This document shows positions 5,305 to 51,705 of a DNA stretch of 64,000 nucleotides, piece after piece. The notes beneath the pieces were generated by a model. The model did no database searches. It was not told where the DNA came from and saw nothing but the letters and a program-made list of their open reading frames with translations. Positions within the stretch are counted from its first letter, which is position 1; every line of letters starts with the position of its first letter. Location of the stretch: positions 28,925,861 through 28,989,860 of the forward strand of contig NC_057746.1 of NCBI RefSeq assembly GCF_004010195.1, written 5' to 3'. The position numbers and the translations under genes are program-made. Source of the DNA: Chiloscyllium plagiosum (Eukaryota).

Positions 5305-5331
5305 AGTGGAACAGGATACGGAGCTATGCAG
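5305..5331 (+). CDS. Gene 1 27-nt pre-B30.2 micro-exon (EWNRIRSYA)
   Basis: tttgcag|...|gtaaaa; identical to 42990-43016. Confidence 0.9.
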
Positions 5332-26362: not shown

Positions 26363-26402
26363 ATGTTTCTTCTGCTCTGGATTCTCGTTTGGATCTTTCA
26401 TG
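26363..26402 (+). CDS. Gene 2 signal-peptide exon (MFLLLWILVWIFH; exon probably starts 26319)
   Basis: ATG plus hydrophobic stretch, donor catg|gtaggg; joins in frame to VVTAEA of the IgV exon. Confidence 0.8.
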
Positions 26403-29400
26403 GTAGGGAAATACATCTGCAAGATACAAAAACCCGTTTGCTCTTTTGTATTTTGCTGTTGGGATCACTTGACAAGTCATTGAACCCTGAGCTAGAATTT
26501 CTTCTGTTTCTCACTCTTCATGTTTATCTATTCCTCACTTTGTTTTTGTCTCTTTGTCTCCAATCTCTGCCTCTATCCCTCACTGTCCCTCTGTCTGTCC
26601 TTTTCCACCACTCTATTTCTCCCTCTCTGTTCCTCCCTCTCTGCCTCGCCCTCTTACTCTGTTACAAATGTTAATATACAGCTGTGATCTAAGCGATGAC
26701 CAGTTGATCTGACTCTCTCTCCAGTGGTTACTGCAGAAGCGGTGACAGATTTTGCAGTGACAGGACCACCTAACGCTATCATAGGGGTTGTCAAGGGAAA
26801 CGTGGTCCTGGATTGTCAGTTGGTGCCAGCCAAAGCCCCAAAGAATATGGAAGTCCGCTGGATCAATACAGTCAATGGCTACAACTCACCTGTCCACATG
26901 TACAAGGAGGGAGCAGATGATTTGACATTCCAGCCTTTGGCCTACAGAGGCCGGACTGAACTGTTTCTCAATGAAGTGGCGCAAGGGAATCTCTCCCTCA
27001 GGCTCAAGGATGTCCAAGTCTCTGACGGGGGACAGTACAAGTGCTTTGTGGCATCTGATGAAAAACACCATGAGGTCAAACTCACGCTGAATGTGGCAGG
27101 TCAGTGACCATTTTGGAAACACCCTGTTTGACCTCCTCAGTGAAGGGTTTATTAAGGTGAAGGATTAAAATTCCTCTAAACCCTGATAGAGCAAAAATAG
27201 TTTGAGACCCTGACAGGATCAACACTGAGAGTCTATTTGAGGAATGTAGAACACAGGGACGCAAACTCAGAATAAGGGGACCATCACTTGGCACAGAGAC
27301 GAGAGGTTAATGTGGAGGCCAAGTAGTTGAGTGTATTTAAGATAGAGGTTTATAGGTTTTTGATTGGCAAAGGGATCAAGTGTTATGGGGAGAAGTCAGG
27401 AAAATGGGTCTGAGAAACATATCAGTCATGATTGAATGGTGGAACATAAGCGATTGACCAAATGGCCAAAGTTTGCTGATATATCATATGTTCCAACACC
27501 TGGCCCGTAGACCTGTATGCTTCAGTACTGTAAAAGCACATCTAAATAATTCTAAAGGCGTGAGTTGTGGATTCCCACCACCCTCTGAATGAAAACATTT
27601 TTCCTGACATCCTCTTGAACCCTCCTGCCCTTCACCTTAAATCTCTATCACCAGGTCATTGAACCCTCCACCAAGGGAATAAGTTTCTTTCTGTCTACCT
27701 TAATCTCTGCTCTTCATAATTTTATGTATCTTCTAATCATGTTTTCCCCCCACCACCCCTCCCCATCTGTCAAATTTGGGGCGGCACAGTGGTTAGCACT
27801 GCTGCCTCACAGCACCAGGGTCCCAGGTTCGGTTCCAGCCTCGGGCGACTGTCTGTGTGGAGTTTGCACATTCTCCCTGTGTCTGCGTGGGCACGCTCTG
27901 GTTCTCTGGTTTCCTTCCACAGTCCAAAAATATGCAGGTTAGGTGAATTGGCCATGCTAAATTGCCTGTAGTGTTAGGTGAAGGGGTAAATGTAGGGGAA
28001 TGGTACTGGGTGGGTTGGTCTTCGGAGGGTCAGTGTGGACTTGTTGGGCCGAAGGGCCTGTTTCCATACTGTGAGTAATCTAATCTAATCTCAGTTGCCT
28101 CTGGTCAACAGAAACAACTCCAATCTGTTTAAACCTGAAACAATTTTTAAAAAAAACGGACTGGAGAAAACCTGGAAATCTGACAGCATCTGCACAGGGA
28201 GAGAAACCAAGTTAGTAAGACTTTTTAAAGAGGGAAAAATTCAGAGGATTCCATCCATTCTTCCCATCTGGGATTGTGATTTTGCTTCTTTGAAACCATG
28301 GTCGAGAGTTTTGGTCTTGACATAATTGTCAGGGCAGCATTAACTTACTGTTAAATAAATTATGTCTTTGGTCTGACTTGAGTTCCATAAGTTTCCAGGA
28401 AAACCCATTTGCAAGTTGTTAATACTAAATAGTTCATAGGCACCTGCAAATGTGTTTAGTCACTGAAATTTTGAACAGAGACGAGTCCACCTTGTGAGGT
28501 TGTACACTTTTTGTGCGGAGACTATTTTCTTAACAGAGAAAGGTTTCAGAAATCTGAAGTGCAAAGGGACTTGGGAGTCCAAGTTCCTGATTCGGTTAAG
28601 GTTAACGTGCAAGTTCAGTTGGTAGTTTGGAAGGCAAATGTACTGTTGGCATTCGTTTCAAGATGGGTAGAATACAAGAGTAGGGATTTATTGCGGAGGC
28701 TGTATAAGGCTCTGGTTAGGCCTCATTTCAAAATTTGTAGGGTGGTTTGGGCCTCTTTTCTCAGGAAAAATGTACTGATGTTGGATGCAGGTCCAGAGGA
28801 AACTTATAATGACTATCCTGGGGATGAAGAGCTTTTCACATAGGAGAAGTTGAGGACCCTGGGCTTGTACTGGATGGAGTTTAGCAGGATGGGAGGGGTC
28901 TTCAGATTGAAATTTACAGAATACTGAGAGGCCTAGATAGATTTGTCGTGGAAGAGTTGTTTCCACTAGTAAAGGAGACAGGACCCAAGGGCAAGCCTAA
29001 GAGAGAAAGTATAACCTTTTAGAACTGAGATGAGGAGGAATGTGATAATCATTGTTACATATGGTTGCGGAGACTAAATCATTGAATGTATTTAACATAT
29101 AGATGGATGGGCTCATAAGGGGATGAAGGGTTACAGGGAGAAGATGAGAGAATGGGGTTGAGAAACATATGAGCCATGATTGAATGCAGTGCAGACTCGA
29201 TGGGCTGAATGGCCTAATTCTGCTACTATGTGCTATGGAGCACTCTGGATTCAAATCGGGTTAAAGTAACTTTAGAACAATGCCAGAGAACCATGTTCTG
29301 ATCCATGCAAGTCAGTGAATTTATAGTGAATTAAAAATTTCTGCGATGTTTATGCAATTTAAAAAGTTGTACTTGACTATTTTTTAAAAAAACTTCATCC

Positions 29401-32400
29401 TGTGGCCTCTTTGAAGGCCCAGAAACAAGGGTTATTTGTAAAAACTTTGCCCTGGTGTCTAATTTGTTCCCTGGGTAATTCCTGTCTGGACTGTTCCTCT
29501 CTCATCTCTCTGAGTGTGGTTTCTTCCTCCCTCCTTGCCCTGACAGATTGTGATCGAACCCTGGTTACCCTGTGTGGAGGGGATTATGAAAGCACAGGTC
29601 AGCTGCAATCTGACCGAGTGGTGTAGGGAGGCCATGACAGACTTTGCGGCCTACTCCCCTTCCTGATGTCTCTGTGATTGCAGGTACAGGCCGCCAGCCC
29701 AGGATCGAGCTGGAGGGCCAAACGGGCGCTGGCATCAGACTGGGCTGCAGATCCGAAGGGTGGTACCCACAGCCGCCCGTCCTGTGGGTAGATGGAGGTG
29801 GTGTGAACGTGACGGCCCAGCAGCAAACCACGTACCAGCCGGACCCTCAGGGGCTGTTCACTGTCAGCAACTCCATCAAGATCTCCAAGCACTCCCCCAA
29901 CAAGTACACTTGTGTCATTAACAATGTGATCCTGAAGGAGACACAGGAGGGTCACATCCAGATCGCAGGTCAGTCATGGTGGGAGAAGACTTTCCCAGAT
30001 ACTCAGCGGGCTGGGGGAAAGGACTTGAATCAAATTATTGAGAAATATAAAAGCCCGAGGAAATGCTGTGATTGAAATAGGCTCCTCATTGCCACTTGTC
30101 TCTGACCAGGGCCAAGGTCAGCCTCTCACGGCTACAGCTTGCCCGTCGTGGCAACAAAAAAGGCATTTTACCAGGAGAGAGGGAGTGATGGAGATTTGAG
30201 AGAGAGTGAGAGACTGCAACAGAAAGCGAAGGAGAGGGTGTGATGGAGAGAGAAGGAGAGGGTGTGATGCAGACTGGGGGAAGGAGAGGGTATGACAGAA
30301 GTGGGGAGGGAGAGGGTTGAATTGAGTTTGCGAAAAGAGAGAGAGGTGATGGACAGAGAGTGGTTGTTGGAGGGAGAGGGAAATAATGGAATGGTGGGTT
30401 CAGGAGAGGGAGATGAGTAAAGGAGGAGGGAGGGATGGAGAGGGGAGGGGTGATATAAACTGGAAATGGGGTGTGCCAATGGCTTTGTGTTAACTCAAGC
30501 AACTGGTTCATTTTCTCAAAGTCTCCCTTTTTCTGTTTTCCCCCATCCCCATCTCTCCCTTAATATCTTCCATTCTCCCTCTGCCTTTCTCTTTCCCCCT
30601 CTCACCCTTACTCTTTCTCCCTTCTCTCCTGTCCCACTTCCACACCTCCATCTCGCACCCCTTTCTTTCTCCATCTCTCATTCTCATCTCTTTCTTTTTC
30701 TGTATTTTTTTCCTTCTATCTCCCCATGTCCTCCACCTTTATGCCCATTCNNNNNNNNNNNNNNNNNNNNNNNNNNGGTGATGAAATGAGCAATATCTCT
30801 TTTTCTCTCTCTTTTTCTTTTTCTCTTTCTCCCTCATACACTGTCTCTTCCCTCCTCTCTTTCCTTCTCTCTCTTTCCTTTTCTATCTTTCTCCTATGCT
30901 CTCCATCACCCTCCCATCGTCCTCCCCCTCTGTCTCTTACTCCCATTCTCTCACTATCTCTGTCTCACTCTGACTGTCTCTGTCTCTCCTCATCTTTCTC
31001 TCGATACAGATTCCTTCTTCCCCGGTGTTTCCAGATGGCTGACAGCGTTCTGGATCCTGTTTGCTCTGATTGTTGTAGCAGTTGCTCTCGCAGTGTGGTA
31101 CCATTGGAAATTACAGAATAAGATTCAAGGTGACAAACTCTGCTCAAGCTCTTAGAACGTTTTTCAAGAATATTCGTAAACAGAATCTAATAAGTCATTA
31201 ACAGAAAATAAAACAGACAGTGCTTGTAACACTGCATAGATTAGGCAGAATCTGTGGAGAGAGAGAGACAGCGTTAGTGTTTCGGGGAAATAGGAGTATA
31301 TTTTTAGTGAAGTCTGTAATGAACAGTGTAATGAGGACCCTTTTCATTACGGTCCGACTCTGACTGTATCTCCCAAGGATATGGTGCCCATTGGATTCAT
31401 TAATTTATTTGGTTTTCTTTGCCAGGCCTCAAGATGTCTGATGGTTTTCTTGGTAAGTGATGTTTCTTCAATCTATGGGACATGTGCTGATGTTACACTG
31501 GCTCTTACTGTTGAGGACTTTCACACTCCCACTGTGACCTTTACTGTTTCTGTCCTGAGAGGGCTCCGACCCCTCCTGTATGTAACTGATCTCACCAGTC
31601 TCCGGGAGGTTCCCTCGGTCAGTTTCTGATCCAACCCTCAATTATCCAGCTGGGGCATTCTAGCATATAAACACTGCCTTGGTACCCGCACCCCCATCCC
31701 AAGACACTCCCTATCCCTTTCTGTTTCTTCCTCTCACCTAATTGTCTCTCTGCACTCCCCAACTCTCTACCCTGCTACTCTCTGCCCTCCCCCGCTACTC
31801 TTTTCCCCTCCCCAACGCACTCGCTTTCCTCTCCCCACCCCCACGCTCTCTCCCCCCACCGCGCNNNNNNNNNNNNNNNNNNNNNNNNNNNNNNNNNNNN
31901 NNNNNNNNNNNNNNNNNNNNNNNNNNNNNNNNNNNNNNNNNNNNNNNNNNNNNNNNNNNNNNNNNNNNNNNNNNNACATGTTCTCTTTCCCCCCCCATAC
32001 CGTCTCCTTCCCCTATCTTCCCCATTCCCTCCACACTCTCACCCCTCTCTGTCTTTACCTTATCTCTTCTCCCCAGTCTCTGCCTTTCCACCTCTCACTT
32101 TTCCCTCCTCCACGTTGTTCTCTTCCCGTTCTAATTGTACAGGGATTTGGTGAGATTGGAGCATTGAGTACAGCTTGTCTGCTTACCAGACTAAAGGTGT
32201 TCTGGTTGTGGACGTAGCACAATGTCGGCTTATCAGACTGTTGTGTGGGATAACAAGACTTGATCAATTAGATCTCTGAAGGGAGACTAGTTCACTTAGA
32301 ATTAATTTTTGGAGGTTCAAAGAATGAAGCTGAATCTCTCTACCCCTCTCTGTCTCTTTGCCCCTTTCCACCTGCACTCCTCATTCCATCAACTCCCATC

Positions 32401-35400
32401 CCATCCCCCCTACCCTGTCCCTCTATTTTCCCCACTCTACACCCTTCTCTCTACTCCTCTTTCTCTCTCTCATGCTCCTCCTCCCCCAACTTCTCCCTCA
32501 CTCTCTCCTTTCTCCTCCCCCTCTCTTCCTTCCTCACACTGCCTTTCTCTCTCTCTCGCTCTTTCCACATAGTTCTGCAATTACTTCTTGTCCTTTTTAA
32601 CTATTTCAGTGATTCCCTTCAGAAGGTTCCTGTTGAAAATCATGGGAAAAGAAAACCTTCTGGTACCTCTCTCATGTTTCTGTTTCCATTGTTTTGAGTC
32701 CATATCCTCTGTCAGTGACCCTCTCCCCAGTTTCTCTCCAGTTCATTCACTCTGATAACCAGACATTGGGTTCTTCTTCTTCTTCTCCTTCTTCTTCTTC
32801 TNNNNNNNNNNNNNNNNNNNNNNNNNNTCTCTCCCCCCCCTTCCTCCTCTCTTTCCCCCCCTTCCTCCTCCTCTCGCGCCTCCTTCCTGTGTGCTTCTCC
32901 CTCCTCCTCTTTTCCATTTCCTCCTCTCCCTCCCTTATATCTTTTAAGACTTTTTACAGTCGGGGAGAGTGGGTGATGTGATTTGGGTGGCGCACGTTGC
33001 CCTGGGATTGGGAAAGGGATAAGTGTGAGTTGCAAAGTGCTGCCACTGATTTAATGTTTTCCTTTGACTCATTACAGAACATGAAAGGCTGCTGGGTGAC
33101 ATGGGTGAGTTGCTGTTTGAAACATAAATGTGAAGGGAATGGGAAACCCAATGATGTGGAAATATAGTCACAGCATTTGAGAGAAGAACTCTAATCCTAG
33201 GCCTGGTGATGTAACGGTTAACAAATAGTTTGGGTTTGAAGGTCTTCATGGCATGAATAGTAAGAAATATTTGCTTTTCTGTAACACCTGTCACATTCTG
33301 AGAATATCTCAACGCATTTTATCGAAAATGATGTGCAGAACAAAATGAGAAGCCAGAGCAGGAGTCAGCTGGAGCAGGTTGAGCTGTTCCACTGTACAGC
33401 CTGATCTTGGCGGATTGACTTCTCTGCAATATCTCACGTAAAGAGCCTACATTTTTATTTTCCTGCATTTTTGATTGATGAGGCAAAGAATTCAGAAGAT
33501 TCACAGCCCATAGATTGAGGAGATTTCTCCTCATCGCAGACCTGAACGGGAAGAAAGGTTTTCAGAACTGTGGGTGGGTTGGCATTGAGAAGCGAAAGGA
33601 GGACGAGACTGTCGATATGTTCTGCAAGATGGAATAGTCAGGTTTTCTCCATTACAAAGATGAGTTTTATGTCTTGAATTAATTGTGGTTCTATGATGAA
33701 GTTTTGGCTTAAAGTTCCTATCCAGGGTTTGGGGACTAAACTCCAGGTTGACACTCCAGCACAGAGCTGAGGGAATGCTGCATTGTCAGAGGAGCTGCCT
33801 TTTAGATTAGGCTTCAATATGTGGTCTTTGAATGAATGGAAGCACATGCTGTGTCTCTAAGAAGAACAGATGAGGGCTCCCCAGTGTCCTGGCCAATATT
33901 TATCATGCGATTAACATCGGAGGAATGAAATGATCTGGTCATTGTCCTGGTTACTGTTTGTGGGATCTTGCTGTTCACAGGTTGGCTATGTAGAAGAATA
34001 CAGTGCAGAAGAGGCTTTTCAGCCCATCAGTCTATACTATAATGCTTCCTTTGTGATGAGATGTGCCTTTGAGAGGGATTTGTTCTGTCCTGGTTCTTGA
34101 AGAGAGGAATTGTAAACCTGGAGCCGAGGTGTCTGCTGCATGGACAGCAGAGTAAATAGCTTCTTCTTTAAAAAATTAAGCTGAAGAAGCCCGAGCACAT
34201 GGAGTCAGGCTCACAACGACCCAGCGTTTTAGTTTTGCTTTCAGTTGTTGAAGTTGGGGTTTTGGAGTGAAGCTACGAGATACAGCTCTCTCTTAGTTGC
34301 TACTAAAAGCTTACATTCCCTCTCTCTTTGCTGCTGGATTCATTCTGTTGGTTCCCCTTCTTCTGGACTGGAGGAGGTAGCAAGTGTGGAAAAACTGTTC
34401 TGCTGAATTTGCCTTCGCCAAGAGTGGGTTCATGGGATGCTGCAATATTGGAACAGTTGGTGTGTAGTAGTTAACTAGTATTTTATTAGGTCTTCAAGAG
34501 AGATAAAGTTGTGCCAATTCTTTGTTTTGAGTTTGCATTTTATTGTGGTGTCGGAATAGTGTTTTTCTCAAAGCCTGTTGGTTTGACCAATCAAGTCACA
34601 TTTACAAAGAAGGGCCTTACACTTGCCTCTAAATAAAAGTTCAGCTCTACGTTATCTTTTTATATGTTTGAGGAGGCTTGGTCTGGTCCATAACACATTA
34701 AATAGACAGTTCTGTTTCTATAAAACACTGGAGGACATATGGTCACTGTTAATTAAATCTAAATGAATCCTCTGTATTTTTCACCATTTCTTACATGGAT
34801 TATTTTTAAACTTTCAGAGCAAGAGAAGAGAAAGGTGAATGAAGGTTAGTAATCAGAAACCTGGGGATGCTGGGGACGGTTTCATTCAGACCCTGATTGT
34901 GTTTCTGTGCAGTTTCAAGACTGGAGTCAATTTCAAACCGAGATATTGCAAGGTCACTTTATTGTCATCTCATTGAGGTGTTTTCACGTTTTTTTTTAAC
35001 AGAGTATCAAAGACTGCACCAGGAGATAGGTAAGAACATGAAATCAATTGGATAGAAGGGAGTTGTGGGTGGATTATCCCCAGAGCAAGACAGTGGGAGA
35101 GTGATGGGAAAGCGGGATGGTAACTCTGACTGGGACCAGATTCTAGTGGGACAGAAACAGTCTTGGAACAACGTAGAACTCATTGCAAATCCCCTGATGG
35201 GTCTGCCATAAAGCAGGTGCTGAGTGAAGGAGTGGGTTTGGGCCTCTGCCTTTCTGGGAGCAAGAGGAGGACAGACTTTGACCTGGTTACTGTCGACTCA
35301 GGATCACATCGTTGTTTGTTTATTCCATTTCAGAGAACGCGAAGCAAGCAGGGAAAAAAGGTGAGTTATGTGAACACACGTTGTTTGGATTGTAATGTTT

Positions 35401-38400
35401 CATTTCAGCATCAGCCCGTCTGAAGACAAGTTAACAGGTTTGTAAATAACTGTTAATGGCCATATCACCCAAACTGTTCCATCAAAATGAACATTAAATT
35501 GTAAATGAACATTAAATGATGTGAAGTGGATGAGTTAATTCAGTCACTTCTTCACTGTGAGCTAGTTATGTTCATTGATCTCAGAACTGGGATCCTTGAG
35601 AAGCAGACTTTCCAGGAATTTCTTGAGTTGATGCGAACAAATCCCGGAGCTGGGAATCTGTGGATATCTAGAAATACACTCCTCTTTAAATCACTATTTA
35701 TTAATATTGCAGCAAGTCTGGTGTGTTCACTACTTTCCAAAATGCTCACTGATCGAAACTGCCAGCAAATGCTAGGACAGACTTAGCATCAGTTTTAAGA
35801 GGCACTGGATTTATGAGGATAGAGTCTAATCAGAGAGTGAACGGCAAAATTACTCTGCAGAGGGTGGCACGGTGGCCCAGTGGATAGCACTGCTGCCTCA
35901 CAGCGCTAGGGACCTGTGTTTGATTCCAGCCTCGGGCAACTGTCTGTGTGTACTTTACACATTCTCCCTGTGTCTGTGTGGGTTACCTCCCACAATCCAA
36001 AGATGTACAGGTTAGGTGAATTGGCTGTACTAAATTGCCCATAGTGTTCAGGGATGTGTCAGTTAGGTGCATTAGTCAAGGGTAATTGGTCTGGGTGGGT
36101 TACTCTTCAGATTGTCGGTGTAGATTTGGTGGGCTGAAGGGCCAGTTCCCACACTGTAGGAAAGAAAAGATTCCTATGATTTTGTTGTCTTTGCAACTTT
36201 GATAAAAAGGCTCATAAAACCTGAGCAGGATGCCTGGAGTTAATCACAGGCTTCTATTCAGAAGGAAGATTTAATCTTCCCATGAACACACACTCCTCCT
36301 GCTCCCTGAGATTGAGTGAGTTACACATTTTTTTATCAGGACATGTGTTTGTGAATCAGTCATTGATTTCATAATCGATTCTCTTCACAATTCTACAAAT
36401 AGTCAAATAACGTCTCCCATATTTCATTATTTTCTAGTCATTTCTAGTCTTTGACATTCTGATGTGAGGAAAAATGCATTCCTGACAACACAGTTTCATC
36501 TCATTCAACACCCTCTGACTGGGCTTTCACAGTCTAGCCTGTAAATTTGTGGCCATCCAGCACTCTATGTTTTCACTAACCCCTGTTCCACACCCATGTT
36601 TGTAGACCTACATTGGCTCCTAGTTGAAAAATGTCTCCATTCTTAATTTCCCACTCAATCCCCTCATGTCCTTGCCTTCTCTGCTCTGTAACTCTGACAT
36701 TCCTGTGCTCCTTTAATTCTAGCCTCTCGCATACCAAAAATTATAATTGTTCCTTCATTGGAGAGAACGGTTTCAGTTGCTTCAGTTCCAAACACTACAC
36801 CCCTACCCAAATCTCAATTTCCTTCTTTAAACACGGTCCCATGAAAACCTCCCTCATTGATAAAGCCTTTAGTCATCTGACCTAATACCTCACTGTGTAG
36901 CTGATATTTTTAAATGTAATATTTGAAGCATTTTGAGATGTAGTTGAAGAAAAACAGACTCTCTAAATGTATACGCAGTGTATTATCTGATAGGTGAGCA
37001 ATGCTATGCAAGAATTACTCATATAATAATTATTTTTAAAAAGTTTTTTTTGTCTAAACTTAAAAATATCTCTGAGAAATGATTTCAGGGATTTTTTTCA
37101 GTGACATTTCTGCTACAACCAATGATCTGATTTTACATTGCTTTGTTCTGCATATGACAAATTTTGCTCTTGTCTGTTTTTCTCTTCAGAATGTGAAGAA
37201 CTCCAGCAGTTGTACGGTAAGAGATCATTTCCAAAGCATTTTCTCTCTGGGTTTGGGTTCGCAGCTCATGTTCAGCACAGCTTTCTTCACCAGCATCGCA
37301 TTGGTCATGAGAAACTAAAGGCAATGTGGCGAAATACCCCAAGTTTATTCCTGGTGCTTTCAGCTTAATGGGTTTAGTTTTACTGGATATACCAAAGTGT
37401 TTGATGCCAACAGTCAGAGGTAGCTTTGTGCTATATCTAGTCCGTATCTGCATTTCCTGAGAGTATTTGATGGAACAGTAAAGAACAAGAAGATTTACAT
37501 TGTTCCTAACTATGCTGTACCTCCTGGGAATTTTTGATGGGGGTGGTATAGACAGACCTTCAATCTGATTCTAACCCTGTATTTTCCCTGACCCAGGAGT
37601 GTTTGATAGGATGGTTTTGAGGGAGCTTCACTTGATATCTAATTGTGTTATGCTGGAAGTATTTAATGGGACAGGGTAGAAGGATAGTTTTTATCCTGTA
37701 CCTAACCTGGTGGACTGGGTAATCTCATCACTGACCTGTGCAGGGCGAGGGTAGACCTGGATAATGTTCACCACATTCATTCCAGAAGCCTTGCAAGTGG
37801 TGGCATCTTCTAGAAGGTTCTATGCTTTAACATCTCTTTCTTTTCCTTTTTTACAGAAAAGAAAATGGCCATCATTATTGCAGGTAAGCAGGGAGCTGAG
37901 GAATTTCTGCTGGAGGAGAGGGACAGCAGATGTGTTATCAACTCTGGTTTGATGCACTTCTGGAGGTTTGGTCACATGACTTTGGTTGTGAGGAATTGGA
38001 GGAACAATCAAACAGGCCTTCCCCATCCCTCACTTTTTTTTCCCTCCAAACACCTTAATTATACCCCCTTGTGATAGCCATTTCTGTCCTAAAAAATCTC
38101 TGACTATTCACTCTGTCTCTGCCTGTCATCATCTTGTGCACCTCTATCAAATCGCCTCTCACCCTTCCTCGCTCCCATGAGAAAACCCTTAGCTTCCTCA
38201 ACATTTCTTCAAAAGACATGCCCTCCAGTTGAGGCAGCCTCCTGGTAAATCTCCTCTGCGCCTTCTCTAAATCTTCCACATGCTTCCTACAATGAGGTGA
38301 CCAAAACCGAACACAATATTCCAAGTGTGGTCTAACCAGGGCTCTGTAGAGCTGCAGCATAACCTTGCAGCCCTTAAACTAAATCCCCCAGCTAATGAGA

Positions 38401-41400
38401 GCCAACACACCATACGCCTTCTTAACAACCCTATCAACTTATTTTCTAAATTCAAAGACATTTAAATAATCCACACATTGTGTAATTCTGAGAGTTCCCA
38501 TTCCTGGGCAGTGGTCACTTTGACCAAGATATTGACCATTCCTTCCTGGAGAGTTGTTTCCCCGTGTTACTGAACATCTGTTCGTGTTCCAGCTGCTTCA
38601 TGTCTTCTGGGTTTTGTCTCTACTCTGAGGGAAAAGGCATAGAGTGAGAGAGATGTACAGCATGGAAACAGACCCTTCAATCCAACTCGTCCATGCTAAC
38701 CAGATATCCTAAAATAATCAAGTTCCATTTGCCAGCATTTAGCCCATATCCCTCTAAAGCTTTCCTATTCATATACCCATCCAGATTTGTTTTAAATATT
38801 GTAATTGTACCAGCCCCACCATGTCCTCTGATGGCTCATTCCATACACTCACCACCCTCTGCGTGAAAACATTTCCCCTTGGGTGCCTTTTAAATCTTAA
38901 GGTTTAAATGATCTTGTCTATTTATCCTCTTCATGCCCCACATGATTTTATAAACCTCCAGGGAAAACAGACCCAGCCTATTCAGCCTCTCCCTATAGCT
39001 CAAATCCTCAAACCTTGGTAACATCCCTGTAAATCTTTTCTCAACCCTTTCAGATTTCACAACATCTTTCCAATAGCATGAACTCTTCACTCCCCAGATG
39101 ATGCCAATGTTGGCCTGACCCAATGCTTGCCGTGGTATTCAGGTCGATGATTCCTGCTGTAGCTGGGGGTTTGCTGTGTGGGTACAGATGATACTGAGAA
39201 CCGTCGATTGGATTGGTGTTGCACTATCCACTGCTCCAGTTTGTGGTGGTAGATGCTTCCATGGGCTACTGCTGGTTCCTCCCAGACCGAGTGAGTCTGG
39301 CTAATGGAGACTGAGCTCAGAGCACAGAGGTCAATCTAGAGCACAGAGGACAACAAAAGATAGCAGAAAAAGAAGGTTGAGACATTGTGAAATTCAAATT
39401 TGTGATTAATGCCTCTCCCTTATCTATTACAGAACATGAACAATTTAAGAAACAAGTTGGTAAGTAATTTAATCAGAATTTTTATTTCTGTCGATGGCCA
39501 ATTCAAACCAAAGGCAGACTTACTGCAGCTCTTCCACAGTTCGTGCTCAGACTGGGGCCTGTTTCTCCATGTGTACTCAGTCTGGGGGCTGTTTCTCAGT
39601 CTCTGCTCAGGCTGGGGGCCTCTATCTGTGCTTGGGCTGAAGTCTGTTTCTCACTCTGTGCTCGAGCTGGTACCTGTTTCTCAGTCTGCGCTCAGCCTGG
39701 GGCCCGTTTTTCAGGCTGTGCTCAGGCTGGGGACCTGTTTCTCCGTCTGCGCTCGGGCTGGGGGCCTGTTTCTCAGTCTGCGCTCAGGGCTTAGGGGCCT
39801 GTTTCTCAGTTTGCGCTCGGGCTGGGGGCCTGTTTCTCAGTCTGTGCTCAGTCTGGGGGCCTGTTTCTCAGTCTGTGTTGGGGCTCAGTTACGTTACCAG
39901 TGTCGAGGAGCACACATTTTAGCCTTGATTTTCCATTTTATTAATATTGTATAATATCTCACTCGGGTCATTGTTCCATGCTATTGCTAAGTTCTTGATT
40001 CTGTCTTACAGATGAAGAGAGGGAGTCGGAGAAAGCAGGTATGTAACTGTGTGTGGGCCTGAAGAAGTGAAGTTCACCTCGACACTGGAGCAGGGAGGGA
40101 ACTGGGATGGTGCATGCTCTGACAGGGAACAGATTGAAAACCCAGAAGCAGACAGCAAATGCTTCTCTCTCTGCTAATTTTCATTCTCAGTCTCTCTGCC
40201 TCACTCGCATTTCATATTTTCTCTCGCTTTCCTCTCCCATTCTCATCTTCTGCTCCTCAGAATCTCTCTATCTGTCTCTCTCTCTGACACCCACACCCCA
40301 AATGCTCCCCAGGTTCTTTCTTTCTTTCCCTTTTTCATTCATTCTCTTCTGCTCTCCTTCCTCACCTTCGCCTTCTCTTCTGCTAATGTCTCTGCATCTC
40401 TGTCTCTCTTTTCCTCCTTGTGTCTCCCCATCCCTCTCCTCTTCCTGCTTGTTTTCTCCCCAGTTCTCCATCTCTCCCCTGCCCCCCCACCCCCAATCTC
40501 TACATCTATCTCTCCTTCTTTTCACAAAATGATTGGTTAGTGATCTAAAACAAAGAAACTCAGCAGTCCAGGGAACATCAGTTGAAAGAGGAAAAACTAA
40601 GTTAATGTTTCAAACCTATTTCATTGTTTTTGTACCATCTCCTTGTAAATCACTTGGTGCCCAAAGGCAGTATATGAACACAGGTCGGTTCATTTTTTGT
40701 TTGAAATCAGCTTTGGGAAATAACTACTGATAATAAAATTTGTATGTGTTGGTAAGTGTATAGTCAATTGTTTATTTGAAGATGTCAGCTCTTTGCTTTA
40801 ACCATTTCTGATCATTCCTTATTCACAGAATATCAGAAGCTACGCACTGAATTTGGTGAGTTAGCTGTCAGTAAAAATGTGCCTTCATCTTCAGCTCAGC
40901 TGCAGTTAGTAATTGAGCATAAAAAAAAAACAGGTTCAAGTCTGCACCATGCTTTCCCTCAGTTGGGTGTAATAATCTGGGATTGACTAGTCTCCCTCCT
41001 GGTGTTACAAATAACTTGTTTACTGAAACAGATTTCTAGACAGAGCTGCAGGCACTCATGAGAGATTGAACATCTAGAGATCATCATGTCTGTAAACGGC
41101 AACTTTGTAGAAAGTGATCTGGGCCTCCTCATTTTTAACTAAAATTATAGAGTCTGGATTCACTTTGAATTGATCACGTCCCAGTTAATAAACATGGATT
41201 GGGTATTTACTTTGCAGCAGGAAGACAAAGCTAGCTTTTATAAGGTGTTGCTGGGCAATGGGTCCAATTTTCGTCCCTTCAAATTTCGTTCAAGATGGAA
41301 ACTCAGGCAGTTCTATTGCAGGAGGCTAATCCTCCAGTGCTTCTCAGAAAATATACCCTTGCGTGTTCTTTACCAAATATGAAAATATTGGTGGGAGTTG

Positions 41401-44400
41401 AGCAGGGAGCTTCAGTTAACTTGCTCTGTAGTGCCACTAGATGGCCAGATGTTGCAATCACAGTCTGACTGTTGATGTAGAAAAATAGAATGGGAACTGC
41501 TAGCGCAGGTATTTGTTGATCAGAAATGCTGGCAATAGATCAGGACTTCACATCCTGGCTAGATTTTCTTAATAATACGTTAGTTATTGCTGCCATACTT
41601 AAAATGGATTTGGCTTTATTCTTTAAGAAAACCCTGGCGTGAAAGCAAAATTTGTTGATAGCGTTAAGTGTATTGAGTGGGTTTTATTCACACATTTTCT
41701 CTTCACTGTTTCATTTCAGAGCAATGGAGACCTCTGGTCCAGTCAGGTATGATACCTGTGTGAATGCACAATGAAAAGAATCTTCAGTTGTCATTTGTAC
41801 AAATGATTTGGATATGAATACAGGAGATATAGTCAGTATGTTTACAGATAACACCAAAATTGGTTGTCTTGTGGACAGCGAAGAACATTACCTCAGAATA
41901 CAATAGAACTGGGATTAGATGGGCTATTATACTGAGGAGTGACAATGGTTCTTGAGTTTAATTTCGATAAATGGGAGGTGCCAAATTTTGGAAAGTCAAA
42001 TTAGGGCAGAACATATACACTGAACGGTCCCGGGGAGTGTTGCTGAACAGAGACCTTATGTTGCAGGTTTGTAGTTCCTTGAAAGTGGAATCGCAGATAG
42101 ATAGGATAGTGAAAAAAGCATTTGGTATGCTTTTCTTTTTTTTTGTCACTGCATTGAGTATTGGGGTTGGGAGGTCAAGTTGCGGCTGTACAGGACATTG
42201 GTTAGGCTACTTTTGGAATATTGTGTGCAATTTTGATCTCCCTCCTATCGGAAGGATGTTGTGAAACCTGAAAGAGTTCAGAAAAGATTTACAAGGATGT
42301 TGCCAGGGTTGGAGGGACTGAGCCATAGGGAGAAGCTGAATAGGCTGGGGCTGTTTTCTCAGGCACATCAGGAGCTGAGGGGTGACATTAGAGGTTTATA
42401 AAATCATGAAGGGCGGGGATAGCCAAGGTCTTTTCCCCAGGGTGGGGGATTTCAAAACTAGAAGGCATAACTTTAAAGTGAGATTTAAAAGGGACCTAAG
42501 GGGCAACATTTTCATTGCAGAGGGCGGTGTGTGTATGGAATGAGTTACTAGGGGAAATGATGGAGACTGGTACAGTTACAGCATTTAAAAGAAACCTGGG
42601 TGGATATATGAATAGGAAGGGTTTAGAGGGATTTATGCCAAATGCTGGCAAATGGGAAGAGGTTAATTTAGGATTTCTGGTCAGTATGGATGAGTTGGAT
42701 TGAAGGGTTTGTTCTGTGCTGTACACCTCTATGACTCCAAGAATCTATCAACGTTTGTATATTTTTTTGATGTTAGCCCAGTGTTAATTGCGTGTGTGTG
42801 CGTGCATGTGCGCCTTTGCCTTTGGCTACCCACTGTGGGTCAATGTCTTTGCCTTTCGCTACCCACTGTGGGTCAATGTCAGATCCTTGGTGTACTGAAA
42901 GCCACAATGTACTTTGAATGTTGTCGTGTTTTGAGAGTACTACAGTTTATTAGTTATCTTCAGTTACTATTTCTGTGTTACTTTTGCAGAGTGGAACAGG
43001 ATACGGAGCTATGCAGGTAAGATTGTCAATGTAGGTAAGACCTCACACGATACTGCCCTAACCACCATCTTTTGGATCATCAGAAGGATTTACAAGATTA
43101 CTTATCAATTTCCTAGGTCGTGTTATAGTGCAAATTCAACAGATACAAGTTGTGAAGTGACCCATTGTACCATAAGACCTCCTCAGGAGTTTAAGACAGT
43201 TTGACAGCTCTATTGGCATTTTGTCTGACATCACATTTTTATTCCTCAATTTTTTTTTCAAACTAACCCAGAAGGATATGATCTCACCTTTGCTGGACTT
43301 TGGGTGCAGCAACAGAATCACGACAGGCGTTTTATACAGGAAGATGCAAATTGGTTGGGTCATCTTTGGTGTAGAGGTGAGGCTGGTGGATTCTGATTGG
43401 TCAGGGAGTTGCCTGGAAATACAGCAGAGGATTGGTTGCCTCTGTGAACCTGGATTTATGACCAAAAGTGAAATATATGCACAAATTCTTGTTACTGACA
43501 TGCAATAGGATCTTGTGTATTTATATGTGTAACTTCCAGCATGTTTAAATGCATCTGGTTGTATGTGCCCAGCTGATGATCTTAAATTGGTCTCTGGTAT
43601 AACTTGTAGCACCATCTGAATTATTTACCAAATTATTTCCAATAGCAGAATCACACCCTTTGATGGATATATTTTTCTGAGGCTTGCAAATACAGGGTGG
43701 TAAATAAGCTGGCAATGGTGAAAGAGCTCTCAATGGAAATGCTTTCAATACGTGGCTTTTATAATTCTTTGTGATGGTGAAAACGTCCTTCACAATGGAT
43801 GTGGAAAACTTATTTTGAACTGTTTGCAACAGGCCTAGCAATCTTTTGACCAATTCGTGTTGTGCAAAATCAGTCAGTGATAAAATGGGATATATTTGCA
43901 GAACATTCTTCACACCCTTGGGAAAATTCTTCATGACCAAAGACCTAAATGTTGGCAGTATTGTTGAAAATGTGATTGAAGTTTGAGCTGGTAACCTTTA
44001 GACTTCAGAAGAATGAGAAGGAACCTCTTTGAAATATATATATTTCTGAGAAGGCTTGGCAGAGTAAACACTGTGAAGCTGGTTCCCTGGCTAGTGAGTC
44101 TAATCCTTACACTATGGAAAAAGCCAATTCTGCTCAGAGCCTGCAGTGACCCTTCAAAGAGCATCCCATCTGGATCTGGCCCATTGCCCTATCCCGGTAA
44201 CCCCTCATTTACCATGGCTAATGTCATCCTTAAAGCCTGTCCATAAAGTTACAAGTCAGGAGTGGGGTAGAATACTCTGCCCTTGCCCTGGATGGGTGCA
44301 ACTCCAACAATACTCAAGAAACTTGACACTATCCAGGACACAGCAGCCCTGCTGCACTGGCACTACACCCACAATCATCTACTTTCTCTACCTCCGTACC

Positions 44401-47400
44401 AGCAGTGTGTACTATCTTACAAGGTGCACTGCAGAAATTCACCAAAAAATCCTAAGATAGCACCTTCTAAGCCTACAACTATCTAGAAGGACAAGGTAGC
44501 AGATCCATGGGTGCAACACAACAATCCAAGCTCCCCTCTGAGCCACTCTCTATCCTGACTTGGAAATATACAGTAGTCCCCTCGTAACCGGGAGGGATCC
44601 ATTCCAGGATTTATTGCAGAAGGCTGAAACCGCGGGTAGAAATGGAGCCATTCATTTAAAAGGGAAATGTATCTTCCTGGCAGACTCCTTGTCCCTCGTT
44701 GTGGAAGGTTCCCTTTTATATGTTCGGGCTGCGTGAAACCATGGTAACCAGACCCATGGATATGGGGTCGCCCTGTATTGCCATTGTCGCTTGGTCGAAA
44801 TCCCAGAATGTCCTCCATAATGGCATTGTGGATCTACTTACAGCAGGTGGACTGCAGAAGTTCAAGAAGGCTTTACACCTTCACACATTTAGGGGCAACT
44901 TGGGATGGGTAATAAATGTTTGTCAGCCAGCAGTGCTCACATCCTACAAATACATTTTTTTAAACTCCACCTAGCCTGCATATCCCTAGACATAATAGAG
45001 CAGGTTTCTGGATGTCGATTTGTTCACTGAGCTAGAAGGTTCATTTTTCAGATGTTTCATCACCATATTAGGTAACATCATCAGTGAGCCTCTGGATGAA
45101 GCACTGGTGGTGAAGCCCACTTTCTCTTTGTGTTTGGGTTTCCTAGGTTTGGTGATTTCATTACCTGTGGTGATGTAATTTCCTTTTCTTTTTATCAGGG
45201 GGTTGGTAAATGGGATCCATGTCAATGTGTTTGTTGATAGAGATCCGGTTGGAATGCCATGCTTCTAGGAATTCTTGTGCATGTCTCTATCTGGTTTATT
45301 CTAGGATGGATGTGTTATGCCAATTGAAGTGGCGTCCTTCCTCATCTGTATGTAAGGACACTACGTGAGAGTGGGTCACATCCTTTTGTGGCTAGTTAAT
45401 GATCATGTATCCTGCTGGCTAGTTTTCTGCCTTTTTGTCCAATGTAGTGTTTGTTACAGTTCTTGCAAGGTATTTTGTAAATGATATTGGTTTTGCTTAT
45501 TGTCTGTTTAGGGTCTTTCAAGTTCATTAGTTGCTGTTTTAGTGTGCTGGTGGGTTTGTGGGCTACCATGATGCCAAGGGGTCTGAATAGTCTGCCAGTC
45601 ATTTCCAAGATGTCTTTGATGTAGGGGAGAGTGGCTCGGGTTTCTGGCCGTGTTTTGACTGCTTCTTTGGGTTTGTAGCTGAAAAATCAGCAGACTGTGT
45701 TCATTGAATACAGGATACATGAACATCAAATAACCACAAAAAGACATGACCCGCTCTCACTAGCATCCTTACATACAGATGAGGAAAGACACCACTTTGA
45801 CTGGGATAATACATCCATCCATGACAAGCCAGACGAGAATTATGAGAAGCATGGCATTCTAACTGGAACTCTATCAACAAGCACATTGACTTGGATCCCA
45901 TTTAGCATCCCCTGAGAAAAAGAACAGAAAATGGCGACATCATAGGAAATGATGTCACCAAACCAAGGAAACCCAAAAACATAAGTAGAAAGTGGGCTAC
46001 ACCAGCAGTGTTTCATCTGGAGGCTCACTGACGATGTTACGTAGTGCAGTGACAAAATGTCTGAAAATGAACCTTCCAGCTCAGTGAGCAAACCTACTTC
46101 CAGAACCTTAACCTGAGCTACAAATCTTCTCAAAACTTGAGAGCAAGTTTTAGCTAATCCACCTAACCTGCACAACTTTGGACTGTGAGAGGAAATTGGT
46201 GCACTCAGTGGAAACCCACATAGATATAGAAAGAACATGCAAACTCCACACAGACAGCCATCCAAGGTGGAATCGAGCCTGGGTCTTGGTGCTGAGTCCG
46301 CAGTGCTAGCCGCTGCCTGACTTGAAAAGGTAGGTGGGGTCAGATATTTTGGATTGAGATGAGGAGAAATGTTTTTACTCTGAGATTTATTAATGCTCAG
46401 AACTCTGTAGCCTAAAGATCAGGAGATGCCCAATCATTGAATACATTCAAGGGTGCAATTGATAGAGCTTTTGTCAGGATATTGCTGACATGGGAGGTGG
46501 GCCTTGCTGTTGAAGCTGGCATTTGGTGTCCATGCCTAATTTCTCTTGAGCTGATTGACTGACTGATCTCTAGGCTATTTCAGAGACAAGGGGATTGAGA
46601 TTTGGTGGATAGTGAAGTAACTTGGGAGACAGATCAGTGATGTGTGGCATTTGTGTGTTCTTCCCACGGCTGCTTGGGTTTCCTATTGGGTGCTCCAGTT
46701 TCCTGTGACAGTCCAGAGATGTGCAGGCTGGGTGGATTGGTCATGCTGTATGCAGAATTATGCAGATGGGATCAAGGTCTGTTTATGGATGGGATGCTTT
46801 TGAGAGGATCAGTAGTAACATGATGGGTCAAATGGCCTCTTTCCATACTATGGGGGTGCTATGATCGTACTGATCAATGGAGCAAACTCAAGGGGCTGTG
46901 CAGTCTGTTCTTGCTTCTATTTCTCACCTTCTTGTGTTCTTTCCTAGCCCATGTAAAGATGGACCCTGAAACAGCCAACACATGTCTGATGGTGTCTCCA
47001 GACAGGCTGAGTGTGCAAGCCGGAGATGCACAGGATGTCCCCAACAACCCGGAGCGGTTTGACTCTGTCCCTTATGTGCTGGGCGCAGATGGTTTCACGG
47101 AAGGGGCCCACTACTGGGAGGTGAAGGTGGCTGACAAGTCCTACTGGGATGTAGGTGTCACCAAAAGCTCAGTGCAGCGCAAGGGCATGCCTGACCTGTG
47201 CGCCGATGCTGGGTTCTGGACGATTGGGAAGGATGGTGAGCCATATGGAATAAGTGATGCGCAACGCTCCAAAGTCACGGTAACGACCAGTCCTGGAACG
47301 ATCGGGGTGTTCCTGGAGGTGGAGGCAGGAAGGGTGTCTTTTTTCAATGCCGATGACATGTTCCATCTTTACACATTTCAAGTCAACTTCTCAGAAAAGG

Positions 47401-47465
47401 TCTACCCATTCTTTTGGCCTGGCTGGGACAAGTCACCCTTAACTGTCTGTCCAGTCAAGAACTAG
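26363..47465 (+). CDS. Gene 2: complete butyrophilin-like type I membrane protein (SP-IgV-IgC-TM-long helical linker-B30.2), 544 aa, 16 coding exons
   Basis: Exons 26363-26402, 26725-27099, 29684-29968, 31010-31129, eleven 27-nt exons and 46948-47465 sum to 1635 nt. All junctions are GT-AG phase 1 with no internal stop. The domain order is diagnostic of the BTN family. Confidence 0.92.
26725..27099 (+). CDS. Gene 2 IgV exon (B7/BTN-type)
   Basis: FAVTGP...VVLDCQL..MEVRW...YRGRTELF...GNLSLRLKDVQVSDGGQYKCFV; acceptor ctctctccag|, donor |gtcagt. Confidence 0.97.
27779..28090 (+). mobile_element. V-domain SINE (HE1-like); further copies at about 35864-36160, 46150-46318 (-), 55460-55790 and 62767-63090
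   Basis: tRNA-like head, V domain, gggccgaagggcctgtttcc tail and (taatc)n end. Confidence 0.88.
28490..29240 (+). mobile_element. CR1-clade LINE 3' fragment
   Basis: QRDLGV..LYKALVRPH motifs. Confidence 0.8.
29684..29968 (+). CDS. Gene 2 IgC exon (BTN-type)
   Basis: GTGRQPRIELEG...IRLGCRSEGWYPQPPVLW...GLFTVSNSI...YTCVINN; acceptor ttgcag|, donor |gtcagt. Confidence 0.97.
30751..30776. other. Assembly gap (others at 31865-31975 and 32802-32827), all in pyrimidine-rich intron tracts
   Basis: N runs. Confidence 1.
31010..31129 (+). CDS. Gene 2 transmembrane exon (DSFFPGVSRWLTAFWILFALIVVAVALAVWYHWKLQNKIQ)
   Basis: 120-nt phase 1-1 exon with hydrophobic helix. Confidence 0.93.
33078..33104 (+). 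CDS. Gene 2 micro-exon 1 (EHERLLGDM)
   Basis: attacag| 27 nt |gtgagt. Confidence 0.85.
34052..34696 (+). mobile_element. Probable solo LTR; related pieces at about 980-1460 and 19880-20840
   Basis: TG...CA ends, internal AATAAA, similarity among the three loci; no TSD confirmed. Confidence 0.45.
34818..34844 (+). CDS. Gene 2 micro-exon 2 (EQEKRKVNE)
   Basis: ctttcag| 27 nt |gttagt. Confidence 0.8.
35003..35029 (+). CDS. Gene 2 micro-exon 3 (EYQRLHQEI)
   Basis: tttttaacag| 27 nt |gtaaga. Confidence 0.85.
   Translation, partial: SIKDCTRR
35334..35360 (+). CDS. Gene 2 micro-exon 4 (ENAKQAGKK)
   Basis: ccatttcag| 27 nt |gtgagt. Confidence 0.85.
37190..37216 (+). CDS. Gene 2 micro-exon 5 (ECEELQQLY)
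   Basis: ctcttcag| 27 nt |gtaaga. Confidence 0.85.
37400..37710 (+). repeat. Degenerate ~60-65-bp tandem repeat (gggagctttactctgtatctaac...ggagtgtttgat)
   Basis: About 4-5 recurring units. Confidence 0.65.
37857..37883 (+). CDS. Gene 2 micro-exon 6 (EKKMAIIIA)
   Basis: ttttttacag| 27 nt |gtaagc. Confidence 0.85.
38040..39080 (-). mobile_element. Two CR1-clade LINE 3' fragments
   Basis: LYRALVRPHLEYC..RFTR; 3' tail at about 38640. Confidence 0.8.
39433..39459 (+). CDS. Gene 2 micro-exon 7 (EHEQFKKQV)
   Basis: tattacag| 27 nt |gtaagt. Confidence 0.85.
39540..39890 (+). repeat. ~31-bp minisatellite (ctcagtctgtgctcaggctgggggcctgttt), about 11 units
   Basis: Directly visible tandem units; explains ORFs 39409-39954 and 39543-39794. 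Confidence 0.9.
40012..40038 (+). CDS. Gene 2 micro-exon 8 (DEERESEKA)
   Basis: tcttacag| 27 nt |gtatgt. Confidence 0.85.
40829..40855 (+). CDS. Gene 2 micro-exon 9 (EYQKLRTEF)
   Basis: attcacag| 27 nt |gtgagt. Confidence 0.85.
41720..41746 (+). CDS. Gene 2 micro-exon 10 (EQWRPLVQS)
   Basis: catttcag| 27 nt |gtatga. Confidence 0.9.
41790..42740 (+). mobile_element. CR1-clade LINE 3' fragment
   Basis: RT C-terminus and VWNELL..FKRNLG motif. Confidence 0.85.
42990..43016 (+). CDS. Gene 2 micro-exon 11 (EWNRIRSYA)
   Basis: ttttgcag| 27 nt |gtaaga. Confidence 0.9.
45005..46130. mobile_element. Penelope-like element with inverted terminal-repeat arrangement
   Basis: GIY-YIG NIIYKIPCKNCNKHYIGQ..RIHDH on -; about 45010-45410 is an inverted copy of about 45713-46100. 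Confidence 0.85.
46948..47465 (+). CDS. Gene 2 B30.2 (PRY/SPRY) terminal exon, intact
   Basis: ttcctag| AHVKMDPETANTCLMVSPD...NNPERFDSVPYVLGADGFTEGAHYWEV...IGVFLEVEAGRVSFFNA...FSEKVYPFFWP..LTVCPVKN*. Confidence 0.95.
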
Positions 47466-50400: not shown

Positions 50401-51172
50401 AGGGCAAATACTAGGGGCCAGAGATGTAAAGTAATGGAAGGAGAATAATGGACAGGGTTTGCACCCGGCGGCTGAGGACCAGGACCTCACTGCCAGAAAA
50501 AGAGGTTTTTGAGCTTGTTCTCTCTCCATGGATACTGCCTGATCCGCTGTAAGGTCCAGTATTTGTTGCTTTCACCACAATAGATTCAGAAACCCTTTAA
50601 CTTTAAAAAAGTTTTTTTTTTAAATCACACAACACCAGGTGAAAGTCTGACAGGTTTATTTGGAAGTGCAAGATTTGGGAGATCTGCTGCGTCGTCAGGG
50701 AGCTGGTGGTGCAGGATCATGGGACACAGAATTTAGAGCAAAAGGTCTAGTCCAACACCGGCATCTCCGCATCATACTTTAAAAGGATAAATTGTTTAAA
50801 GAACTCAGGATAACGGTGTTAAGTGCTTCGAGTTTTTAGCCGTGAGGCCCCTGCGATGAAGTTATACCTCAAATCTATTTTTAGTTTAAAAATAGCTTTA
50901 TTTGTGCAATTTACTGAGAACAGGACAGCCGCGGCCCTGCCAAGATATGTCATGTAGCGCCACCTCCCGCCTGTGGAGCAACATTACAGGCAGGAAGGTC
51001 CCCGGGTTCCTGCAGCTCACAGCTCACTCTACCCAGTCAGTCCCTCTCTACAATTGAGCTTCTATTTGTTTCTTCTCTCCCCCTCCTTCTTTCCCCCAGA
51101 CTGAGACTGACCCCCATCAGTTTACAGCTGGCAGGAAGCAGTAGGACGGGATGAAATTATGGGATGGATCTG

Positions 51173-51705
51173 TCAGTGCCCTTTAATCCCGCAGATTGTC
51201 GGGGGGGGGGGGGGGGGAGTTTTTCCCGCTGTCATTCCATTCCGAATGGAACAAGGGGAAGACCCTCTCAGTGAAAGTGTGGAGATGGGACATGGTGTCC
51301 GCATTGTAAAATGACACCTGTCCACTCTCATAGTCCAGGAAAACCCCGATCTTCCGGGGATTCACACTCAGGGAGAGGGGATTCCATGTGGGGGCAACAT
51401 AACTATCTCCAGGAATCAGCTCCACATTCCAGAATCCTATCCCCTCCTGGAAGACTCTCAGACCACTCCCACTCTCCACGCCGTCTTCCCTCCCACCTCC
51501 ACCTCCACCTCCCAGTAATGTCTCTCTGATGTGAATCTCTCTGATGTGAATCCCTCTGATCCCAGGACACAGAGCCAGGAATTAAATCTCTCCGGAGAGT
51601 CAGGGAGCGGCTGCTCTGTGTCTCCGAGTCTCACACTGGTCCGGTCCTCAGACAGGATGAGCAGGGGATGCGCTGTGTTTGGATCCAGAGTCAGAGAGGC
51701 TGGAG
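51173..51705 (-). pseudogene. Orphan decayed TRIM-type B30.2 exon (inverted paralog of 9472-10015)
   Basis: Same [13 protein letters not shown] start and CGIKGH* end. It has an in-frame TGA at 51458-51460, a frameshift, a 15-nt duplication ([10 protein letters not shown]), a 6-nt duplication (EVEVEV), a 12-nt deletion and a poly-C expansion. Confidence 0.92.

Follow-up and report, generated by a model that had tools for sequence, protein, structure and literature searches.

The window analysed here, 64,000 nucleotides (nt) of Chiloscyllium plagiosum DNA (contig NC_057746.1, positions 28,925,861 to 28,989,860), contains an intact butyrophilin gene whose cytoplasmic tail, between the transmembrane (TM) helix and the B30.2 domain, is encoded by twelve consecutive 27-nt exons. 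These micro-exons alternate between two types, A and B, and the 18 residues of an A/B pair make up a repeat of five helical turns with a hydrophobic period of 3.6, not the 3.5 of a heptad coil. The preliminary description of this DNA had proposed a butyrophilin tail of this kind with eleven exons. Its identification of the gene is borne out by the domain matches and by mammalian butyrophilins as best matches (sequence E 2e-89, Foldseek E 1e-42), and all eleven exons were recovered with the peptides reported for them, but an overlooked first exon raises the count to twelve (Table 1).

Exons were located by an acceptor and donor splice-signal scan of the window, with no use of the reported peptides. 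Between the TM and B30.2 exons the scan gave twelve stop-free AG/27 nt/GT exons, each of phase 1; twelve of the 15 high-scoring candidates of 9-60 nt in this interval are 27 nt long, and each of the remaining three uses a splice site of one of the twelve. The antisense strand of the interval yielded one candidate and 27.3 kilobases (kb) of flanking window DNA, both strands, eight; none in either control is of 27 nt, and chance splice signals are thus rejected as the source of the array. From the TM exon to the stop codon the spliced translation is identical to a stretch of RefSeq XP_043534312.1 (P0012, C. plagiosum), so the micro-exons are already present in public annotation, in a model that fuses this gene with the next butyrophilin downstream (gene F). 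The gene has a hydrophobic leader, B7-like IgV and IgC domains (V-set and PF22705, above cut-off), a single TM helix (a 120-nt TM exon, and helices in the predicted model), the twelve micro-exons, and PRY and SPRY together in one exon; a heptad (3.5) juxtamembrane register, which is a typical butyrophilin trait and no requirement for membership, was not found.

The two-exon repeat and its helical period

We number the exons 1 to 12, with even exons of A type and odd exons of B type (the odd exons of the preliminary description are our A exons). The split into A and B ranks first of the 126 partitions of exons 2-10, both at the protein level across nine sequences and at the DNA level in this gene, where identity is 13.3 of 27 bases within a type and 9.6 of 27 between types. 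Neighbouring exons are dissimilar (lag-1 score -4.1), whereas exons two apart resemble each other (lag-2 score +5.3). The A exons are hydrophobic at positions 2, 5 and 9 in 58, 91 and 93% of 45 cells (five pairs in nine sequences). To this extent the alternation originally proposed is real; the B exons, however, are not simply polar: at positions 6-7 they have residues that are small or aliphatic, and at positions 3-4 a mostly conserved E-K.

The hydrophobic period of the clade-weighted profile lies at 3.59-3.61 on three scales, and its power is 10.0 at 3.60 as against 0.6 at 3.50, a comparison on which we reject a plain heptad coil and which upholds the five-turn repeat anticipated in the preliminary description. 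The periodicity test cleanly separates ideal heptad and 18/5 controls of equal length, and none of 1000 shuffles matches the observed peak (Fauchere-Pliska scale, exons 2-12). Along the tail the phase stays within 54-76 degrees at a period of 3.6 and drifts by about 185 degrees at 3.5. Over exons 2-12 the peak falls at 3.57-3.61 in all nine sequences; elsewhere it is found at 3.62 in Callorhinchus, 3.61 in Narcine and 3.59-3.60 in four rays.

A core spacing of 3-4-3-4-4 would combine a heptad with a hendecad (7 + 11 = 18/5), with A2, A5 and A9 forming the hydrophobic core, B3 and B4 a polar E/K layer and B6 and B7 a small-residue layer. Such an 18/5 periodicity has been described as a stutter delocalised over two heptads, slightly left-handed and near the 3.63 of a straight helix (PMC4786415). 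Charge pairs between A8 and B4 are attractive in 31 of 45 cases and repulsive in one, and those between A1 and A6, also i to i+5, attractive in 18 of 45 and repulsive in four. By the textbook rule, g-to-e' bridges are expected in a parallel homodimer, and both sets of pairs fit this expectation.

Nine-residue repeats are known to form alpha/beta coiled coils with beta-layers in bacteria and phages (PMC4786415), and a tail of nine-residue exons might be such a nonad fibre. We consider this extremely improbable and reject the beta-layers: the [aliphatic]-A-T-K motif is absent from all nine tails, the lag scores make the repeat one of 18 residues and not of nine, power at a period of 3.0 is 4.2 compared with 10.1 at 3.6, and an unbroken helix is predicted.

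Nine residues are 2.5 turns, so that gaining or losing one exon gives the helix beyond it a 180-degree turn. The core is preserved only when exons come or go in pairs, and the pairing of exons is therefore a geometric need. Accordingly, in silico loss of a single exon among exons 5-9 lowers the power at 3.6 from 10.8 to 0.6-2.2, while loss of any adjacent pair leaves it at 7.9-10.1.

The predicted rod and its length in evolution and in transcripts

In line with the long helix proposed earlier, the AlphaFold2 model of the Hemiscyllium ortholog places residues 282-378 in one 97-residue helix, with block values of the predicted local distance difference test (pLDDT) mostly at 72-85, while exon 1 is non-helical at pLDDT below 50. 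Exon 1 is thus predicted to be a hinge and exons 2-12 a helix of about 145 Å at 1.5 Å per residue. The distance from IgC to B30.2 is 150 residues compared with 92 in human BTN2A1, i.e. about 58 residues (about 85 Å) longer. We regard exons 2-10 as the expanded array proper, exons 11-12 being the old terminal pair common to paralogs.

Pairing and signalling of BTN3A are controlled by its juxtamembrane coil (PMC10665462), and by analogy we consider it probable that in the shark the tail forms a parallel coiled coil, long and weakly supercoiled, which determines the choice of partner as well as how far away the B30.2 pair is held and how it is rotated. In the mechanism that we propose, alternating A and B exons would spell a single long helix, which likely zips with a second chain, with the A8-to-B4 and A1-to-A6 charge pairs bridging the two chains. 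The rod would alternate firmly and loosely zipped segments, giving it moderate stability and the ability to transmit rotation, and would keep the two B30.2 domains at a set distance from the membrane and in a set rotation; occupancy of B30.2 could then be passed to the ectodomain, as by the BTN3A coil. In evolution, length would be tuned in 18-residue steps, since only pairs keep the core.

A 108-residue tail with no insertions or deletions is found in gene models of two Chiloscyllium species, Hemiscyllium, Cetorhinus, Carcharodon, Heterodontus, Mustelus, Scyliorhinus torazame, Leucoraja, Amblyraja and the chimaera Callorhinchus; for S. canicula, model P0006 is fused, lacks the segment from TM to exon 5 and was excluded. 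Hemitrygon, Hypanus and two Mobula species have a tail of 90 residues, for which the best missing pair is 8+9 and the next 7+8; the tail of Narcine also has 90 residues and lacks pair 4+5 or 5+6. The 3.6 period is retained in these shorter tails. Myliobatiform rays and Narcine have thus apparently undergone two independent losses of one adjacent A/B pair, an independence deduced from the different positions of the missing pairs and not from the B30.2 tree, which is mostly unresolved (one of nine branches starred). These two 18-residue losses among orthologs point to the exon pair as the working unit, as suggested in the preliminary description, and the tail appears to have changed its length in evolution mostly by whole pairs.

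The period also sets this lineage apart when 146 IgC-TM-B30.2 units are compared across 240 proteins, a redundant set in which some gene models are plainly wrong and the named bony fish are sturgeon, gar and bowfin only. Linkers of at least 130 residues occur in 34 units; 22 of these belong to the present ortholog group, with peaks at 3.57-3.65, and among the other 12, ten peak at 3.45-3.55, one at 4.0 and one at 3.6 with negligible power. Long tails of named mammal and bird butyrophilins (Dromiciops, Corvus, Erinaceus, Chinchilla) peak at 3.48-3.54.

Inclusion of the array in transcripts was assessed in three contig runs (X1, X15 and X17) on 30980-48400, taken as RNA from their size and spliced joints alone; insert sizes derived from contig spans assume a 30-nt overlap of neighbouring contigs, as inferred from 31-letter words. 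In X15 a 1271-nt contig reaches 352 nt past the TM exon and the next contig begins 2 nt before the B30.2 exon, which gives 352 = 324 + 28 nt, or 12 x 27 nt between TM and B30.2. The corresponding insert in X17 is 311 + 43 - 30 = 324 nt, and 324 nt in two runs means that all twelve exons are included. X1 has the joints 31451-33078 and 37214-37856 at depth 13.7, the same as its 3773-nt contig. Full inclusion of the twelve exons is the main transcript form; contigs lose rare variants, so minor isoforms may exist, and splicing of the array is likely constitutive.

This bears on the earlier suggestion that the tail is adjusted in frame by exon skipping, a splicing rheostat in which skipped exon pairs would give rods of several lengths. 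Every exon is symmetric in phase 1 and any adjacent pair can be removed with the period kept, exactly two pairs are missing from P0001, an older C. punctatum model, and single short exons are skipped in macaque BTN3A transcripts (PMC6790196). However, inserts of exactly 324 nt in X15 and X17, the two expected joints of X1 at contig depth, and the full tail in all six listed Logan-only skate proteins of this gene (among 15 listed of 21 cluster members) make the rheostat improbable, and a one-exon skip would flip the register. No exon-skipping joint is among the 15 joints listed for X1, X15 and X17, which are repeat-derived (166 more are unlisted), an absence that is weak evidence.

Several observations weigh against a paired, regularly repeating rod. 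In Mustelus, two scales put the peak at 3.20 when exons 2-10 alone are considered; only three of the five core positions are strongly hydrophobic, and E at A1 and B1 is partly dictated by the G|A splice junction. E, K and R account for 42% of the tail, and opposite-charge pairs at i+3/i+4 exceed those of shuffles at p<0.05 in five of nine sequences. The AlphaFold2 model is that of a monomer, built on an 8-sequence alignment with a predicted template modelling score (pTM) of 0.39, and the transcript runs are contigs, with size and spliced joints as their only marks of RNA. As for the exon pair, exon borders in other species were inferred from the nine-residue register, not read from DNA; for Narcine there is one gene model only, which is fused; and annotation alone can drop pairs, as P0001 is without exons 4-5 and 9-10, which the RefSeq model of C. 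punctatum has. The pair rule is also broken by odd exon losses in paralogs that form a derived lineage of carpet sharks and have a TRIM-like B30.2: the Stegostoma paralog keeps exons 1, 2, 6, 11 and 12 (45 aa) and that of Hemiscyllium exons 1, 2, 6 and 12 (36 aa), and genomic deletion has removed exons 3-5 and 7-10 from paralog D of the window.

The high charge raises the question of whether a charged single alpha-helix (SAH-like) serves as the spacer here, its stripe binding another protein or a different butyrophilin chain and not a second copy of the tail. The polar E/K at one core layer would suit such a spacer, as would the i+3/i+4 salt-bridge pairs of C. plagiosum (25 against 16.9; 13 of 1000 shuffles) and the preference of mammalian BTN3A for heteromers (PMC10665462). 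We nevertheless hold this to be unlikely, given that the hydrophobic stripe is continuous, stable in phase and conserved from chimaera to sharks, and that charges within one sequence complement each other (31 versus 1 of 45) at a spacing of i to i+5, which is not intrahelical; moreover, the tails of neighbouring butyrophilins, of only about 14-50 residues, are too short to pair with the whole rod.

A further question concerns the history of the array only and fits the same structure: the units of duplication may have been single 27-nt exons, whose later divergence came from selection for one helical face. The flanking introns show no similarity visible by eye, and the DNA similarity of same-type exons noted above may follow from protein constraint. 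On the other hand, an odd intermediate would flip the register, both losses among orthologs are of adjacent pairs, this A/B-like succession recurs in paralog G, and the 27-nt exons of paralogs A and B come in twos. We therefore regard single duplication as the less probable course, though one with an appreciable chance; origin by duplication of pairs is plausible, and inseparable from selection on the helix.

Gene layout and related genes in the same genome

The coordinates of the gene are collected in Table 1. Two N-runs (31865-31975 and 32802-32827) lie inside the intron between exons 1 and 2, and contigs still connect 31451 directly to 33078. The 3' untranslated region extends to at least 48400 (contigs 46946-48400 in three runs). 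The donor of exon 3 is the non-consensus GTTAGT, and a slightly higher-scoring GT lies 17 nt into the exon, where its use would shift the frame.

Table 1. Exons of the butyrophilin gene, in positions of the 64-kb window
Feature	Position	Strand	Basis
Signal-peptide exon, coding part (ATG to phase-1 donor)	26363..26402	+	matches P0012 N-terminus; GT at 26403
IgV exon	26725..27099	+	Pfam V-set E 3e-09
IgC exon, butyrophilin-type C2-set	29684..29968	+	PF22705 E 5.4e-23
Transmembrane exon, 120 nt	31010..31129	+	splice scan; covered by contigs of X15 and X17
Micro-exon 1, 27 nt, predicted non-helical hinge after TM helix	31426..31452	+	splice scan; joint 31451-33078 in X1 and X15
Micro-exon 2, A type	33078..33104	+	splice scan
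Micro-exon 3, B type	34818..34844	+	splice scan; 324-nt total fits 27-nt form
Micro-exon 4, A type	35003..35029	+	splice scan
Micro-exon 5, B type	35334..35360	+	splice scan
Micro-exon 6, A type	37190..37216	+	splice scan; joint 37214-37856 in X1
Micro-exon 7, B type	37857..37883	+	splice scan; joint 37214-37856 in X1
Micro-exon 8, A type	39433..39459	+	splice scan
Micro-exon 9, B type	40012..40038	+	splice scan
Micro-exon 10, A type	40829..40855	+	splice scan
Micro-exon 11, B register, conserved penultimate exon common to paralogs	41720..41746	+	splice scan
Micro-exon 12, A register, conserved last exon before B30.2	42990..43016	+	splice scan
B30.2 (PRY-SPRY) exon, coding part to stop	46948..47465	+	PF13765 E 2.8e-16, PF00622 E 3.1e-21

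We surveyed small exons in 20 IgC-anchored intervals (405 kb) of the same genome, out of 34 IgC hits; a 30-kb limit and assembly gaps leave some of the lists incomplete. Among 72 in-frame candidates, 43 are of 27 nt (12 in this gene and 31 outside it), six of 33, six of 21 and three of 24 nt, compared with three candidates, none of 27 nt, in the antisense control. The exon length of the array is therefore the commonest small-exon size in the butyrophilins of this shark, which bears out part of one refuting condition named in the preliminary description, and what is unusual is the array of twelve: no second such array was found in the 20 intervals, the other genes having at most six small exons that mix 21, 27 and 33 nt. 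Paralogs A and B have small exons of 27, 27, 21, 21, 27 and 27 nt, and several other genes begin with a 33-nt exon. It is suggestive that 21, 33 and 27+27 nt would correspond to 2, 3 and 5 helical turns.

Neighbouring butyrophilins at C37:28832000-28874000, 30029000-30043000 and 33500000-33850000 show patterns of 27,27,21,21,27,27 or 33,27,27. Gene F (C37:28995000-29026000) has no B30.2 in 29 kb and a very basic tail encoded by exons of 27, 24, 24 and 27 nt, of which the two 24-nt exons are near-identical. Contig C37 has at least 18 IgC hits; a search of the genome for major histocompatibility complex (MHC) class II beta was without match and uninformative. MHC genes of C. plagiosum have been reported on chromosome 37 (PMC7677710), which may or may not correspond to C37.

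Two upstream duplicates of this gene, paralogs D (window 1-10016) and C (C37:28885900-28899000), look broken: D has an inserted repeat in IgV and a frameshifted B30.2, and C an IgV frameshift and a stop in IgC. Relative to this gene there are clean deletions at 33651/36272 in D (exons 3-5) and at 37289/41620 in both C and D (exons 7-10); exon 1 of D is 18 nt long and its exon 2 either 21 or 27 nt. The B30.2 of this lineage (window 9473-10016; P0028, P0031, P0089) is 59-65% identical to that of the shark TRIM P0008 as against 40-43% to that of the present gene, suggesting that a B30.2 exon was shuffled from a TRIM gene onto a butyrophilin, and intact-looking models of the lineage exist in Stegostoma, Hemiscyllium and C. 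punctatum. A broken free-standing copy of the same TRIM-type exon, with flanks, lies on the minus strand at about 51170-51760.

In X17 the contig with this gene's B30.2 begins exactly 43 nt upstream of that exon, at the point where exons 11-12 of paralog D and of this gene become identical (41731-41746 and 42990-43016), and the run also has a TM contig bearing the eight differences of paralog D. This pattern could reflect an allele at 41730 or, alternatively, read-through splicing that joins the tail of D to the B30.2 exon of this gene, which lies 41 kb downstream.

Comparison with known tails and significance

Mammalian BTN genes probably end in one or two 27-nt exons. Other chondrichthyan butyrophilins of this genome (A, B, G, H and others) have 27-nt phase-1 exons and the same two terminal exons as the present gene. 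BTN2A1 and BTN3A1/3A3 (PDB 8zk1, 8za9, 8zhr) share the order IgV-IgC-TM-small exons-B30.2 and, ahead of B30.2, a juxtamembrane helix. The small exons of BTN3A3 number four (PMC5829056) and are described as heptads (PMC6790196), in contrast to the twelve nine-residue exons and the 3.6 period found here. Like the shark gene, chicken BG has a long cytoplasmic tail from an expanding and contracting micro-exon array, but one of 13-36 exons of 21 (sometimes 24) nt that encode a heptad coil, behind one Ig domain (PMC4046983); the shark gene, with IgV and IgC, 27-nt pairs, a B30.2 domain and a length fixed over most of its lineage, has neither the single IgV nor the 21-nt array of BG. Known 18/5 coiled coils share the period of 3.6 as a local discontinuity (PMC4786415), whereas in the shark tail it recurs regularly over 5.5 units, with the exon as half-unit. 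A recent survey of jawed vertebrates sees tail differences as a matter of the number of heptads, unlikely to matter (PMC12841164). No description of 27-nt arrays or of an 18/5 tail in fish butyrophilins was found in the literature searched, which left figures, supplements and most subscription papers outside its scope.

The basic pocket of BTN3A1 that binds phosphoantigen is a set of six residues that includes His351 (PMC5829056). The aligned positions of the shark B30.2 are V, D, D, G, R and W, of which one of six is kept; a BTN3A1-type pocket is thus rejected, and the ligand is likely not a phosphoantigen of the BTN3A1 type, judging by sequence.

A wider reading that joins these strands can be offered only tentatively, and we think it less likely than not. 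An ancient butyrophilin lineage, predating the divergence of chimaeras from sharks and rays, would have a half-repeat exon code, in which each 27-nt exon acts as a 180-degree switch and the 18/5 rod changes length only in pairs; a rare single-exon skip would produce an in-frame, register-flipped receptor, dominant-negative or in an off state; and shark butyrophilin tails in general would be built of integer-turn modules of 7, 11 and 9+9 residues (21, 33 and 27+27 nt).

The finding shows no new pathway or ligand. It makes it possible to test directly how B30.2 is coupled to the ectodomain through the rotation and length of the juxtamembrane region, as deletion of one exon would give a 180-degree flip and deletion of two a rod 27 Å shorter in the same register. 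The lineage shows a long-conserved tail geometry unlike the heptad coils so far described, in which the size of the exons is bound to the helical register (7, 11 or 9+9 residues). It also singles out, within the oldest lineage to have gamma-delta T cells, one conserved butyrophilin, apparently orthologous, as a candidate for functional study.

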